Of a stretch of 64,000 nucleotides of DNA, positions 12,001 through 18,000 are shown one piece after another; within the stretch, counting starts at the first letter, position 1; each line of letters begins with the position of its first letter. The DNA is from an uncultured Candidatus Saccharibacteria bacterium. Lineage in GTDB: Bacteria; Patescibacteriota; Minisyncoccia; Phycocordibacterales; UBA2100. The stretch spans positions 29,725 through 93,724 of the forward strand of contig CAZHOB010000002.1 in assembly GCA_964534465.1 (NCBI GenBank), in the 5' to 3' direction. Made by a program: the position numbers.

Positions 12001-15000
12001 TTCGCGCGCTGGGGTACCGGTATATTCGCAAGGCTCAACGGTATTTTTGCGCTCGGCATTTGGGACACGCATCGCAAGGAACTTATCCTTGCGCGCGATC
12101 GCGCTGGAGTGAAGCCGCTCTATATGCATCATGAAAGTAAGCGCTTTATTTTTTCGTCGGAAGTAAAAGGGATACTCCAACACGCGAGCGTACGACGCTC
12201 TCTCAATACGGCGGCACTTGGATCGTATCTTCGTGTCGGATACGTGCCGGGCGAGGAAACTCTTTTTCTGGGCGTAACACGTCTTCCTGCGGGACATTTC
12301 GCACGGATTACCGGTGAAGCGTATGAACTGAAGCGTTTTTTTGAGCGGCCCGCTGCCGGCGAAGTCATAACGGCGCGGCAGGCAGAAGAAAGAGTGCGTG
12401 ACACAGTGGATGGTGCCGTGCAGCGTCAGCTCGTTTCGGACAGGCCGCTCGGCGTGTATCTCTCCGGCGGCTTCGACTCAAGTATCGTCGTCGATTCGAT
12501 GTCGCGTACGCGCAGTTCGATCGACACGTACTCCGTTGGATTTGAACTTCACGGCAATGTTCAGTCGAAAAAATTCAACGCGGACTTTCTTCTGGCGCGT
12601 CGGACAGCTGCACACTACGGGACTCGGCATCACGAGTATATACTCGGCACCGACGGGTTGCCGGAATTGTTCGAGGATACCGTCTATCATCTCGATGAGC
12701 CCAATGGCAACGGAACCGCGATGGCCCAATTCGTGCTTGCGCGGGAAGCTAAGAAAACAGTGACGGTCGTTCTCGGCGGCGACGGCGGCGACGAGCTCTT
12801 CGGCGGATATCCGCGATATCTGATGAGCCGTCGAATGGACGCATATCAATCTCTCGTCCCCTCGTTCGCGCGCGAGGCGCTCGCGCGATACGGAAAGTTT
12901 TCACAACTCAATGCGCCGCCTGATGCCTTACGATATGAATTGTTCCATTTCATAAAAAATAAAGTTCTAAAGGAAGTGACTCCTGCATACGCGGGCGATG
13001 AGATGCGCGAGAAAGTCGCTGCAGCATTGCGCTCCTTCGGAACCGATCTTTCATTCAACGATGCGTTCATGCGACTCGACCTAGAATGGTGGCTTGTCGA
13101 TGAATCGCTCATGCGCACCGACAAAATGGCCATGGCTTTTGCTGTGGAGGCCCGAGTCCCTCTCCTCGATAATGAGGTGGTTGATCTTGCGTCCCGGATA
13201 CCATTTTCTGAAAAGGTGACGCTGCGTGACACCAAGCGTGTATTAAAACGCTCATTCAGGGGCCGGTTGCCGGAATATCTGTACAGCGAACCAAAGCGGG
13301 GGTGGTTCTCGCCATCGGCAAAATGGTTCCGCGTTCCGGAATTTACTGCCTACGCACGTGAGGTGCTCTCGCCGGCGTATTCGGATGCGACGCGCGATCT
13401 CTTTGATTGGCAGGGAATCGCACAGGTTTTCGACGACCATCTCGAAGGCCGGCGCTACAATCTCCCTGTCTTGTGGGCGCTCCTTGCGCTGCAGGTATGG
13501 GCACGGAAATTCGAAATACGCGTATGACCGAAGCCTCTTCAAAAAAGAAGATCCTCTATATCGCCAATGTGCGATTTCCCACCGAGAAGGCTCATGGGCT
13601 TCAGATCGCCAAGATGTGCGAAGCGTTCGCTGATGCCGGATACGACGTCACGCTCGTAAAGCCATGGCGCTTCAATCCGCTGAAAGCCGAGCCGTTTGAA
13701 TACTATAAGGTGAAGAGGAACTTTCGGGTCGTGTCATTGCCGTCGATCGATGCGCTCCGTTTCGGCTACCCGGGATTTTGGCTCCAGTATATTTCGTTCT
13801 CAATTTCCGTATTTTTGTACGCGTTGCTGCATAGGGGAGATACAGTATATTCGCGCGACGAACTCCCGTTGTTTGCGGCATCCATGGTCTGCAAAGATAC
13901 GTATTGGGAATCCCATACCGGCCGCTACGACTCTCTTGTCGCACGGTTATTGCGCCGAGTGAAGGGGGTCGTCGTGATCACTAAAGGGCTGCGTGAGCTT
14001 TATATTTCGAAAGGAGTTCAAGGCGGTGAGATCATGGTCGCACCCGATTCAGTAGCGCTTGATGACCTTGTGCCGCACGAGACTCCTGAAGTGGCGCGCA
14101 CACGCCTCGGACTGCCGCGTCACGCGAAGATCGCGATGTACATCGGTCGTCTCGACGGATGGAAGGGTGCTGCGACATTGTGTGAAGCAGCCGAGCTTCT
14201 CGCGCCCGATATTCTTGTTGCACTTATCGGAGGAGAGCCGCATGAGATCGCAGAGCTGCGAAATCGCTATCCCCGCGCTCTATTCCTCGGGCCGCGACCC
14301 TATCGCGAGCTTGCCGACAATCAAATCGCCGCGGACGTTCTCGTGCTGCCCAATACCGGAAAAGATGAGATATCCACGGGCTACACATCGCCGCTCAAAC
14401 TTTTCACCTATCTCGTATCGAAACGTCCGATCGTTGTCTCCGACCTACCGAGCATCAGGGAGATCGTTTCCGACAAAGAAGTCTATTTTTTCAAACCCGA
14501 CGATGTTACGGATCTTGTGCGAAACATTGTGCACGCATGTACGGACACAGGGGTGGCGCTGCAAAAGTCCCAACGCGCGTACGCCCTCGGCACGAAATAC
14601 ACGTGGACCGATCGCGCCAAAAACATTGCGCACTTTATTTCTATGAATTTAAAGAGCTAAAAGTATGAACTGGCATATGCGGATCACAAACCAGATCAGA
14701 AGTGAGTGGCCGCTCTTCGCGATCCTTGTCCTCGCATTCGTGCTGCGTGTCGTCGGCGTCGGATACGGATTGCCGCTCACGGTGGTGAATGACGAATATC
14801 CGTTCACGTACGCGGCTCTGCAGATGATCCAAGCGCACACACTCATTCCCGCACTCCATCCGGAATTATTTAAAACCATACTGCCGTACCCGCCGTATCT
14901 TTCGTACGTCCTCATTCCACCGTTCGTGGTTATCCTTGGGATCAAGTATCTACTCTGGCACGGCAGTACGGCACTTTTTCAGGCGACACTGCTCTCCGAC

Positions 15001-18000
15001 CTCTCGGCATTTTTCATAACAGCACGTCTTGTAAATGTACTACTCGGGGTATTCTCCGTGTATCTCGTATATCGCATCAGCGAGACGTGGTTTCGCTCGC
15101 GCGTAGCCGCAGCTGCAGCCGCATTTCTCCTCGCAACGAGTTTATTACATACCGCACTTTCAATGGTGGGAAGGAATTGGATGCCTACATCGGTCATCTT
15201 TCTTCTCATTTTGTATGTTTTGACCCGAGAGACATGGAGTTTTAAACGGCGCTACACTATCGGACTCGTGATCGCAGGCATCGGGATGGGAATTACTTCT
15301 CTTTCGGCACTTTCGCTCGCTCTGATCGGTCTCTACTATCTGTGTTTTGATGGCAGGACATTTGGAGATGCAGTTCGTGACGCGTACAAACTTGTCCCTG
15401 CGGTACTCTCATTTATTGTCCTTGCTGCGATCCCATCAATACTTTGGCATAGCGGCAACGCATTTCTCGGTGACGTGACCCTTGCTCAACATAAAAATAT
15501 AATCGACCTTCTGCTTGCTCCGTGGTCCGCGCTTTCGCAGATGATATTTTCCGAACCGATCATCGTGTCATTCTTTTTGGGCGGACTTACGCTTCTTTTC
15601 GCGCAGCGACGACGGATCGGCATCATAATTTCGGGCTGGTTTTTGGTCTACGTGGCGACGTTCTATTTCCTCTATCGATTTGATCCACGATTCATGGCGC
15701 CGCTCGTACCGTTTTTTGCTATCGTTGGCAGTTATTGTATAGCGCGGCTATGGAACAGCAGATCGGCGATCGTTCTTTGCGCGTTACTTTGTATTCCACT
15801 GATCGCATCCATCCGTCTTTCGTATTTGGCGGTGCGGAGCGACACGCGCGTCGCGGCGCGTGAATGGGCCATGACCAATTTTCACGCGTCTGATAATGTA
15901 CTTATCTACGTGCAAGGGCTGCGATTACTCGCCAGCACATCGAGCGTAGCCGAACTCCGTTCAATTGATGCTGGCGCCATACGCAGAACTGATGAAGCGG
16001 AATCCACGCTGCCGGCGCGCACTGCGCCGCACGCTTTGAATTTCTACGATGTTCACAATGACGCATTTTTTAGTGAATTGCCCGCATATGCGCATGAGCG
16101 CAGATACAAGTATCTTATGGTGAGTCAGGATGCTTCGACCGGCTCGACAACAAGCCGAGCATTGACCTCACTTACCACCCTCTCCAAAGAAATAATGCGC
16201 TTCAGCGGTTCTAGTCTCGACACCTCGATCACCAACAGCTCTTTCAAGGCACCCCTCAGCGCGCTCTTCTCAGCACCCTCGCTCGGACCTGATATCGTGG
16301 TATATCGACTGCATGAATGATTTCTTACAAAAATTCGCGGCACTATTGGGCTTGGAGGAGCATTTTCATGCGCACAAACACCACATCCCGCGCATGGGCC
16401 GCGTGCTCCTTATTGGAGGCATCGGCGCGCTCTTTCAGACTATAATTTTCGAGACGCTCGGTATCTGGTGGGGCGTCGTTGCGGCAAGTACCGCGACACT
16501 GATAGGCGCTGAATGCGCGATCATCTCGAATTTTACGCTCAACGAGCGCTTTTCCTTCCGCGATTCTGTGGATCGCTCGACCCCGCTCTACAAGCGTATA
16601 CTCAAATTCCACCTCGTGAGCAGCGGGTCGCTCGCTACGCAATGGATCTGCTTGCTCATTGCCGAACACATTTCGACGAACGCGCTTTTCCTGAACGGCG
16701 CTTTCATCGTTGGCGTCGGCATTGGTTTCATTTTTAACTACACCGGCTACTACTTCTTTGTTTGGGGGAGCAAGGGTTTACACTAAGCAGGTTCAACGGT
16801 GCGCGTCCCTGTACCATGCGACGGTCTTTTGGAGAGCGTCCCTAAGCGGCGTGCGCGCGTGCCACCCAAGAAGCTTCTTTGCCTTTGAGCAATCCAAATA
16901 TGCGACAGGGCTTTCATTGTTCCGGATCGGCTGCGCGCCGAAGTTTATACGGATCGGATCGCCCATGGCCTCGTTGACCATCTCGGCGACTTTCCGCACT
17001 TCGATAGGAGTTCCCGCTCCGAAATTGATGATCTCTCCAGCGCACTTCTCGCTTGCTCCGGCGAGGAGCATTCCCTCGATAAGATCTTCCACATATATAA
17101 AATCACGAAGATTTTTTCCTTCATGCATATCGAAATCCATTCCCTCCAGTCCCGCCTTGATGAAATTGGGCACGAGCATTCGACCGAAGTCCTGTCCTTC
17201 GCCAAAGACAGCCGATGGCCGTATTACGACGGTCTCTATTTCTTGCGCGGTGCCAAATCCGAGCGCCCAATGTGTGGTGGATACTTTCACCTCTCCGTAC
17301 GGAGAAACAGGTTGTTCGAGGGCGGATTCCTTGAAGGGCGCTTTTGCAGCGCCGTATTCTTCCATTGAGCCCATCTGAATGAAACGCGAGACCTTTTGTT
17401 CTGCGGATGCTAATAATAGGGCGCGAGTAATGTCGAAGATGTTTTGTGCGGCATCCAATTCCGCAGAGCTTTTATTACTCATGGGAGAGGCAAGATTGAA
17501 AACGATGGCCGGCCTGCTTGCTTTCAGGATCTTCTTGGCGACTGTAACGTCAGTAAGGTCGCCGAAGAGAATTGTTACGTTTTTCTTTATCTCCGAGAGA
17601 CGCTGCGCATTCTTTTGTCGCCCCACGACCGCGAACACATCCGCTCCCTCTCGCACGAGTGCGCGGACCAAATGCGAGCCGATGAAGCCACCCGCTCCCG
17701 TGACAAGAACGCGCTTATCTTGATAGAACTTTTTCACGCTGAGGTGTTTTATGAACACGTTGTCCCGCAAGGTGCGCGACATACCACGGTATGGTTTCGC
17801 AGAGGCCCTCCACAAGCGAGTGCCGCGGTTTCCATCCGAGTATCTTCCTGGCTTTATCGAACGAAGCGTACTGATTCTTGATTTCCATGCCGTGTGTCTT
17901 CACCACCTTGGGCGCGATGTCGGCCTTCATCTCTCTGGTGATCGCTTTGATCATCGCTGAAGCGGAGAGAGGTTTGTTCGTGGAAAAGTTGAACGAATGA

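Follow-up and report, generated by a model that had tools for sequence, protein, structure and literature searches.

Two overlapping genes at positions 14665-16786 of the window (the whole 64,000-nucleotide (nt) stretch analysed here, from contig CAZHOB010000002.1 of an uncultured Candidatus Saccharibacteria bacterium) encode a 551-amino acid (aa) membrane glycosyltransferase of the GT-C fold, here termed family A, and a 157-aa GtrA-family protein. Comparison with orthologous loci indicates that this GtrA protein is a detached domain of a DPMS-type synthase, and that the ancestral, translationally coupled partner of family A is a DPMS-type GT2 glycosyltransferase and not the fused HAD phosphatase-UbiA phosphoribosyltransferase (HAD-UbiA) encoded 8.8 kb upstream of the GT-C start. 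An earlier note on this DNA had placed the pair correctly and had combined it with HAD-UbiA, given there as about 9 kb upstream, into one self-contained system of donor synthesis and transfer; the distance holds, and the single system is not supported by the neighbourhoods described below. With about even confidence, we favour an overall reading in which the 551-aa enzyme would use a hexose donor made by a GT2 encoded outside the window, GtrA would translocate or escort that donor, and the pentofuranose made by HAD-UbiA would go to a compact GT-C-fold protein encoded further downstream (Table 1).

The folds, family memberships, gene order, conservation and comparative neighbourhoods reported here were observed directly. 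Homologues of the 551-aa protein were sought in a set of 5.8 billion proteins, and its neighbourhoods were collected from one genome per species, which gave 73 loci (numbered with the prefix L) in which open reading frames (ORFs) were called and searched with the window proteins. By tblastn match and context, all 73 come from metagenome-assembled genomes of Patescibacteria, with a few records carrying other automatic labels. Close orthologues of family A were defined by a score of at least 280 bits, leaving 49 assessable loci. HAD-UbiA conservation was read from an alignment of 37 homologues from the candidate phyla radiation (CPR), and its partners were surveyed in ten other CPR loci (L014, L054, L077, L078, L079, L082, L083, L161, L162, and L163).

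Fold and family of the 551-aa glycosyltransferase

Nine hydrophobic segments of the 551-aa protein pass a strict Kyte-Doolittle cut-off, and its AlphaFold2 model (input alignment of 43 sequences; pLDDT 91.5, pTM 0.91) contains approximately 13 membrane helices, where about 12 had been claimed, and a single soluble domain, an extracytoplasmic alpha/beta domain at the C-terminus (residues ~405-551). In a Foldseek comparison of the model with the PDB, the first 26 places were all taken by GT-C enzymes (STT3, ALG12, ArnT, ALG9, Pmt4, AftA, and DPY-19). It was only this fold comparison that linked the protein to solved GT-C structures, as PDB searches with the sequence and with a 43-sequence profile returned nothing relevant and matched no solved GT-C. 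Across 43 homologues, Asp43 never varies and Glu44 is conserved in at least 90%; the two residues follow directly after the first transmembrane (TM) helix (approximately residues 15-35), in the first outer loop, and the window protein retains all invariant columns of the family, D43 included. Fold and motif together uphold the earlier assignment of a GT-C fold with a DE loop motif, and they rule out the O-antigen ligase or transporter that had been named as alternatives.

The match to PMT_2 (PF13231) lies below threshold (23.1 bits against a gathering score of 26.1), while most family-A orthologues do have PF13231 among precomputed Pfam hits; no PF02366 (PMT) match was found in Pfam, no NCBIfam model matches, and the Pfam MIR domain was not returned, so that PMT-type MIR domains appear to be absent. 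The profile search proposed in the earlier note was thus borne out for the small partner, which exceeds the cut-off for GtrA, and not for PMT_2. In the 5.8-billion-protein set, 67 homologues were found, and those with a named source are all from Patescibacteria, mostly Candidatus Kaiserbacteria or Paceibacterota; one NCBI match of 547 aa is 100% identical. NCBI labels the homologues "glycosyltransferase family 39 protein". This GT39 filing is not justified for the window protein, given the lack of PF02366, the sub-threshold PMT_2 score, and the lack of a MIR domain.

It is plausible that the pair consumes a polyprenyl-monophosphate sugar, as had been proposed. The 551-aa enzyme would move one sugar from such a donor, at the outer face of the membrane, onto a surface glycan or protein, with Asp43/Glu44 as the putative catalytic motif. 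A quite different donor, a polyprenyl-diphosphate oligosaccharide assembled by the GT4 glycosyltransferases of the surrounding island, would make the 551-aa protein an oligosaccharyltransferase-like GT-C with GtrA as an accessory, which we regard as very unlikely.

A GtrA domain detached from its synthase

The 157-aa protein scores 60.6 bits against PF04138 (GtrA_DPMS_TM; cut-off 26.1) and covers model positions 3-117 of 117, which agrees with its earlier description as GtrA-like; no NCBIfam model matches it, and only two of its segments pass the strict hydropathy cut-off. Its best PDB match is the TM domain of Pyrococcus furiosus DPMS (PfDPMS; 5mlz), and it aligns to TMH1-4 both of PfDPMS and of GT2-GtrA fusion proteins found in CPR genomes. 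Against residues 248-375 of the fusion in L003, the phmmer E-value is 2e-34, and the first 30 residues of the window protein correspond in the alignment to the linker behind the GT2 domain of the fusions. These alignments indicate that the window GtrA is orthologous to the C-terminal membrane domain of a DPMS-type GT2-GtrA fusion.

The GtrA gene begins within the end of the GT-C gene, and the overlap of 8 nt, reported earlier, was found again with the junction ctgcATGAATGAtt. The closest relative, L004, has the same GT-C/GtrA junction, CTGCATGAATGA, with the same 8-nt overlap, an arrangement that implies translational coupling of the two genes. A scan of 9700..17000 for promoters and terminators gave results at or below chance level. 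Between the window and L004, the GtrA proteins are 69% identical and the GT-C proteins 58% identical, and the nonsynonymous divergence (dN) of GtrA is 0.21 with synonymous sites saturated. From this identity, this dN, the shared junction and the linker alignment, the window GtrA is judged to be a detached DPMS-type synthase domain under purifying selection and not a fresh pseudogene.

The same data bear on another reading, in which the pair would be left over from a GT-C/DPMS cassette in decay and would no longer function. Decay would fit the loss of the GT2 domain, the fragmented GT2 found in L008 at the place where relatives have an intact one, and several Kaiserbacteria loci that have lost both GT2 and GtrA. 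Both ORFs of the window are intact, however, and keep the invariant columns, D43 among them; L004 also has GtrA without GT2, at 69% identity, dN is far below synonymous divergence, and the overlap is conserved. A decaying cassette is, on balance, highly improbable.

Loss of the GT2 partner

A DPMS-type GT2 lies directly downstream of the family-A gene in 30 of the 49 close loci, either as a separate gene of approximately 245 aa directly 3' of family A (26 loci) or fused to GtrA in a protein of 373-395 aa (4 loci: L003, L010, L011, and L020). GtrA alone follows family A in two loci, the window and L004; one locus has another kind of GT2, and 16 have neither GT2 nor GtrA. The gaps at the GT-C/GT2 junctions are -4, -1, 0 or -8 nt. 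The L003 fusion aligns with PfDPMS (5mlz) along its entire length (E 6.7e-32), and the best NCBIfam matches of its GT2 domain, namely PpgS, AglJ, PgfS, dolichyl-phosphate hexose transferase, and ArnC, are all polyprenyl-phosphate glycosyltransferases. In L064, the GT-C itself carries a GT2 at its N-terminus and a separate GtrA gene follows, which is a Rosetta-stone link of the three components. In a neighbour-joining tree, the GT2-only state is basal; the clade that contains the window also holds the fusions, the GtrA-only forms and the losses. A further PMT_2-type GT-C family (475-548 aa), convergently oriented, lies directly downstream of family A in ten loci, mostly Kaiserbacteria (for example L004 12123-13769 on the minus strand and L001 11846-13273, with the same place in L001, L002, and L016); it is absent from the window.

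The history that these states suggest starts from an ancestor in which a GT2 fused to a GtrA-like four-helix domain lay directly downstream of the family-A gene. The GT2 domain may then have been deleted, and the membrane domain would have gained its own start codon within the former linker and been kept as a coupled partner, either to translocate the lipid-linked sugar or to pass it on to the GT-C.

Table 1. Positions of the principal features in the window and of comparison genes in other loci (L numbers).
Feature	Position	Strand	Remarks
HAD(IIIA) phosphatase-UbiA phosphoribosyltransferase fusion	4560..5879	+	NF008978, TIGR01668
Extended SDR (GalE-like), candidate lipid-linked pentofuranose epimerase	5911..6948	+	Pfam Epimerase
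GT-C-fold glycosyltransferase, family A	14665..16320	+	551 aa; CPR-specific, PMT_2/ArnT-like
8-nt overlap ATGAATGA, GT-C stop and GtrA start	16313..16320	+	junction reads ctgcATGAATGAtt
Stand-alone GtrA-family membrane protein	16313..16786	+	157 aa; PF04138
Compact GT-C-fold membrane protein, cryptic	18775..19830	+	351 aa, no Pfam family; 2 kb beyond GtrA
UDP-glucose-dehydrogenase-like/GT4 fusion	1564..3519		
Carbamoyltransferase-methyltransferase fusion	6954..9800		
AsnB-like amidotransferase	11701..13527	+	Pfam; upstream of GT-C
GT4 glycosyltransferase	13407..14660	+	Pfam; upstream of GT-C
GT2-GtrA fusions	L003 11656-12789; L010 9684-10805; L011 4758-5897; L020 1731-2918		type-III-DPMS-like
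GT2 fused to N-terminus of GT-C	L064 9269-11674		801 aa; separate GtrA gene downstream

The HAD-UbiA module and its partners

The HAD-UbiA protein matches NCBIfam NF008978 (decaprenyl-phosphate phosphoribosyltransferase) with 199 bits, just under the cut-off of 207, and its HAD part matches TIGR01668. A protein of the same architecture is known from Citrobacter youngae, where ORF15, a PRP(HAD)-PPPRS(UbiA) fusion, converts phosphoribosyl pyrophosphate (PRPP) to undecaprenyl-P-ribofuranose, ORF13, a GalE-like short-chain dehydrogenase/reductase (SDR), epimerises the lipid-linked ribofuranose, the MATE protein ORF14 is the proposed flippase, and the GT-C enzyme ORF12 (GT136; conserved residues D31/E34/H106/R349/Y350) transfers the sugar (Kelly et al., 2024; PMC11127046). 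In the 37 CPR homologues, the DxDGT motif (D28/D30), N216/D217/D220/D224, and R334/E337 are invariant, and these residues correspond to those that proved important when tested in ORF15. The window protein, a homologue of polyprenyl-phosphate phosphoribosyltransferases with an intact HAD phosphatase, would therefore be predicted to make polyprenyl-P-ribofuranose from PRPP.

The adjoining SDR carries the motifs GGAGFLG and Y134xxxK138 and, by analogy with ORF13, is a candidate lipid-linked pentofuranose epimerase; on sequence comparison, the two genes match the module of a synthase/phosphatase and an epimerase described by Kelly et al. (2024). The SDR also adjoins HAD-UbiA in L014, L054, L077, L079, L082, L083, L161, and L162, and in L163 it belongs to the same operon, with a small EamA/TMEM234-like gene between it and HAD/UbiA. 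Its identity across CPR lineages is 72-82%, where HAD-UbiA is 37-66% and GT-C 42% identical, a strikingly strong constraint for an epimerase-like enzyme. A metagenome scan with the HAD-UbiA profile returned mainly non-CPR, UbiA-only DPPRS loci and three full-length HAD-UbiA proteins.

In each of the ten other CPR loci, a polytopic partner that does not belong to family A lies beside HAD-UbiA/SDR, and family A takes that place in none of them (0/10). In L077 (Kaiserbacteria; 9651-13924), a four-gene operon encodes a TMEM234/EamA-like protein, HAD-UbiA, SDR, and a 520-aa GT-C of a separate family "B"; this operon resembles a CPR version of the pentofuranose system of Kelly et al. (2024) with another type of flippase. 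L078, L082, and L083 have HAD-UbiA, with or without SDR, followed by a family "C". In L014 and L054, the polytopic genes right after the SDR encode proteins of 508 aa (11 TM segments) and 448 aa (8 TM segments). L079 contains, in this order, family B, HAD-UbiA and SDR and, 6.6 kb further on, a family-A orthologue (48% identity to the window protein) with its own DPMS-type GT2, so that the two modules coexist there as separate cassettes. Family A has no BLAST similarity to family B and only a marginal profile match to family C (E 1e-7). The survey of related neighbourhoods that the earlier note had proposed thus finds other GT-C families beside HAD-UbiA and family A never adjacent to it.

In the remaining three loci, the partner is a relative of the compact 351-aa protein. 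The order is HAD-UbiA, TMEM234-like, SDR, a 473-aa membrane protein and the 351-aa relative in L161; TMEM234-like, HAD, UbiA, SDR and the relative, which is convergent with a 4-nt overlap, in L162; and SDR, EamA/TMEM234-like, HAD, UbiA and the relative in L163. These are all of the relatives with readable contigs (3/3). The family itself is small and cryptic: a word-indexed search returned only the query, approximately 50 relatives were found among 1.8 billion representatives, and neither the window protein nor any of these relatives has a Pfam match. Its conserved residues are D142, H172, E174, R222, D288, and R291. Besides the genes already discussed, the 351-aa protein and an ABC exporter are the only polytopic ORFs in the window. 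Because its family occurs in the HAD/UbiA-SDR operon in all three cases, the 351-aa protein is the better candidate and more probably the consumer of the HAD-UbiA/SDR product.

Pairing of donors and transferases

In the favoured reading, a polyprenyl-P-hexose most probably remains the donor of the 551-aa enzyme, supplied by a GT2 whose gene lies beyond the 64 kb, and the product of HAD-UbiA and SDR, polyprenyl-P-ribofuranose or an epimer, would more probably be used by the 351-aa protein. The direction of transfer, the identity of the sugar, the role of GtrA and the acceptor are what we infer here. A translocating or escorting role of GtrA is consistent with two lines of published work: the TM domain of PfDPMS binds flipped Dol-P-Man and is dispensable for catalysis (Gandini et al., 2026; PMC12992685), and GtrA-like proteins, including Rv3789 and PsPA7_6247, act as a flippase or hub beside GT-C enzymes (bioRxiv 10.1101/2020.04.19.049825).

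Several observations weigh against this pairing. No PF00535 GT2 domain occurs in the 57 window ORFs scanned, and phmmer and tblastn gave no match in the 64 kb; three DPMS-type GT2 queries found only the GtrA part by tblastn, with no remnant of the GT2, so that the hexose-donor synthase is hypothetical here. Within the 64 kb, HAD-UbiA is the sole polyprenyl-P-sugar synthase. The sole small flippase-like protein is GtrA, since the TMEM234/EamA-like gene found with HAD-UbiA in six other CPR loci is missing; tblastn and six-frame profile searches of the window found no TMEM234-like gene, no member of the other GT-C families, no DPMS GT2, and no remnants of these. GT2-less family-A proteins deviate at 9-14 of the 81 columns conserved among GT2-coupled members, compared with 0-9 of 81 in the coupled proteins, a difference that is confounded with phylogeny. 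Some of the changes adjoin D43/E44 (P45Y and L49Y), while K53Q also occurs in fusion-bearing loci; such substitutions could reflect a change of substrate. In the 351-aa protein, the first outer loop has no conserved acidic residue that could be mapped as catalytic.

Much of this would be expected if, as the earlier note proposed, the pentofuranose donor made by HAD-UbiA/SDR were flipped by GtrA, as proposed for Rv3789, and transferred by the 551-aa GT-C, the surviving genes having been re-paired after loss of the GT2, of a dedicated GT-C and of a flippase. The window has one such synthase and no GT2; as it has no TMEM234-like flippase, GtrA would be the only candidate for that role, and the first-outer-loop changes beside D43/E44 in the GT2-less clade could be accommodated. 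HAD-UbiA/SDR in the window lacks a directly adjacent polytopic partner, unlike all ten other CPR loci; in L014, L054, and probably L012, the module has a GT2-less family-A gene no more than 5 kb away. Relaxed specificity has precedents, since GtrA-family proteins serve D-arabinofuranose (D-Araf) systems and ArnE/F can replace Rv3789 (bioRxiv 10.1101/2020.04.19.049825), and the GT136 enzyme is promiscuous among pentofuranoses (PMC11127046). However, family A is coupled to a DPMS-type GT2 at 30 of the 49 close loci, which points elsewhere; L014 and L054 retain their own polytopic proteins right after the SDR, a divergent GtrA and GT2 pair lies beside the family-A gene in L012 and L054, and L079 holds the two cassettes apart. 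In the window itself, a gene on the opposite strand separates HAD-UbiA from the GT-C, and a better-supported consumer is present in the 351-aa protein. In L001, L007, and L018, partner genes are seen to lie more than 10 kb away. That HAD-UbiA, the 551-aa GT-C and GtrA form one self-contained system is therefore rather doubtful in our judgement.

A further possibility is that GtrA alone was co-opted for the polyprenyl-P-pentofuranose of HAD-UbiA/SDR, where it would replace the TMEM234/EamA-like flippase and feed one or both of the flanking GT-C proteins. GtrA would then have outlived the deletion of the GT2 because it works with the GT-C and not with the synthase. We consider this combination unlikely as a whole.

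The surrounding glycan island

The window as a whole is one long glycan-biosynthesis island of a Kaiserbacteria-like member of the Patescibacteria (CPR), with 50-55% GC. It encodes eight GT4 glycosyltransferases, the AsnB-like amidotransferase, NeuB, GT9/SIS, and the ABC exporter, along with numerous SDRs, aminotransferases, and methyltransferases; taken together, the island points to a complex surface glycan or glycoprotein. The AsnB-like and GT4 genes (11701..14660) and the GT-C/GtrA pair probably form one operon, and orthologues of these two upstream genes adjoin the family-A GT-C in L055 and L054. The same-strand run that ends in the pair is headed by a gene at 10413..11645 (+), whose 410-aa product has a single membrane helix at its N-terminus; Pfam and NCBIfam gave no match for it, and none of the loci retrieved contains a homologue.

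Three other parts of the island may be mentioned. The genes at 35221..36666 and 57932..59434 encode paralogous soluble proteins of 481 and 500 aa (mutual phmmer E 7e-24), one of which has a weak Pfam match to Capsule_synth (KpsS/KpsC-like). On the minus strand, 23427..25068 holds a split transketolase-like pair, corresponding to the N- and C-terminal halves, beside a PfkB kinase, a zinc-ADH, and a DUF4254 gene; this arrangement is kept in L001 and suggests an unusual sugar-precursor pathway inside the island.

Relation to known systems

The Gtr-type three-component systems (GtrA/GtrB/Gtr* of Shigella and Salmonella phages; CsbB/GtcA/YfhO of Firmicutes) likewise have a GT-C beside GtrA, and their cassettes include a GT2 polyprenyl-phosphate sugar synthase, as do the relatives of the window. 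The window differs from them in that no GtrB-type GT2 occurs in the 64 kb, its GtrA descends from a synthase domain and not from an independent gene, and its GT-C belongs to a CPR-specific family with no NCBIfam model. Compared with the GT39 Pmt enzymes (with Ppm1 in Actinobacteria) and ArnT (GT83, with ArnC and ArnE/F), the 551-aa protein has no PF02366 and a sub-threshold PMT_2 match and, unlike the GT39 enzymes, no MIR match between its helices.

The fusions of L003, L010, L011, and L020 share with the type-III DPMS of P. furiosus (5mlz; Gandini et al., 2017, 2026) the architecture of a GT2 followed by a four-helix GtrA-like domain. A strict definition restricts type III DPMS to archaea (Gandini et al., 2026; PMC12992685), a statement with which the Patescibacteria fusions that match PfDPMS over its full length contrast. 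The window GtrA, unlike type-III DPMS, has no catalytic GT2 on the same polypeptide, and its ORF starts in the linker; of the PfDPMS residues compared, the equivalent of Asn277 is Asn, that of Asn248 is Gln, and those of Arg341 and Phe338 are not conserved.

With the pentofuranose system of C. youngae, the window shares the architecture and catalytic residues of ORF15 and an adjoining GalE-like SDR; with pentofuranose systems in general, including the mycobacterial DPA system (Rv3806c, Rv3807c, DprE1/E2, Rv3789, and Aft/Emb), it shares GT-C-fold and GtrA proteins in the same island. It has no MATE flippase and no DprE1/E2, and the 551-aa GT-C is not adjacent to the synthase, its family being tied to another one. 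In GT136-type systems, the GT-C is encoded in one cluster with the phosphoribose synthase and co-occurs with it; in the HAD-UbiA loci examined, this does not hold for the 551-aa family, and it holds for the 351-aa family in three of three relatives. The CPR partner families, namely B, C, the 508-aa protein and the compact 351-aa family, are new, and no paper in the literature library searched ties Patescibacteria to GtrA, GT-C or DPPRS.

Implications

The outlines of glycosylation from lipid-linked sugars outside the membrane are well understood, and the pair at 14665-16786 adds a CPR-specific member to it but no new principle. Modest by-products are the detached GtrA domain, the bacterial type-III-like DPMS fusions and the compact GT-C family that lacks a Pfam model. 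Polyprenyl-phosphoribose modules of the type described by Kelly et al. (2024) are common in Patescibacteria and are accompanied by several unclassified polytopic partner families. As this case shows, closeness of genes in a glycan island says little about which donor belongs to which transferase; here, comparative neighbourhoods reassign the pairing.

The family-A neighbourhood offers an evolutionary series in one place: a separate GT2, a GT2 joined to GtrA, a GtrA without GT2, and a GT2 joined to the GT-C. Purifying selection on GtrA where it stands alone argues for a function of the GtrA/DPMS membrane domain that is independent of catalysis and tied to the GT-C, a role that is debated for PfDPMS, Rv3789, and PsPA7_6247. 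If GtrA was indeed co-opted for the pentofuranose donor, the window would represent a natural separation-of-function experiment on the flippase versus hub role of GtrA/DPMS membrane domains.

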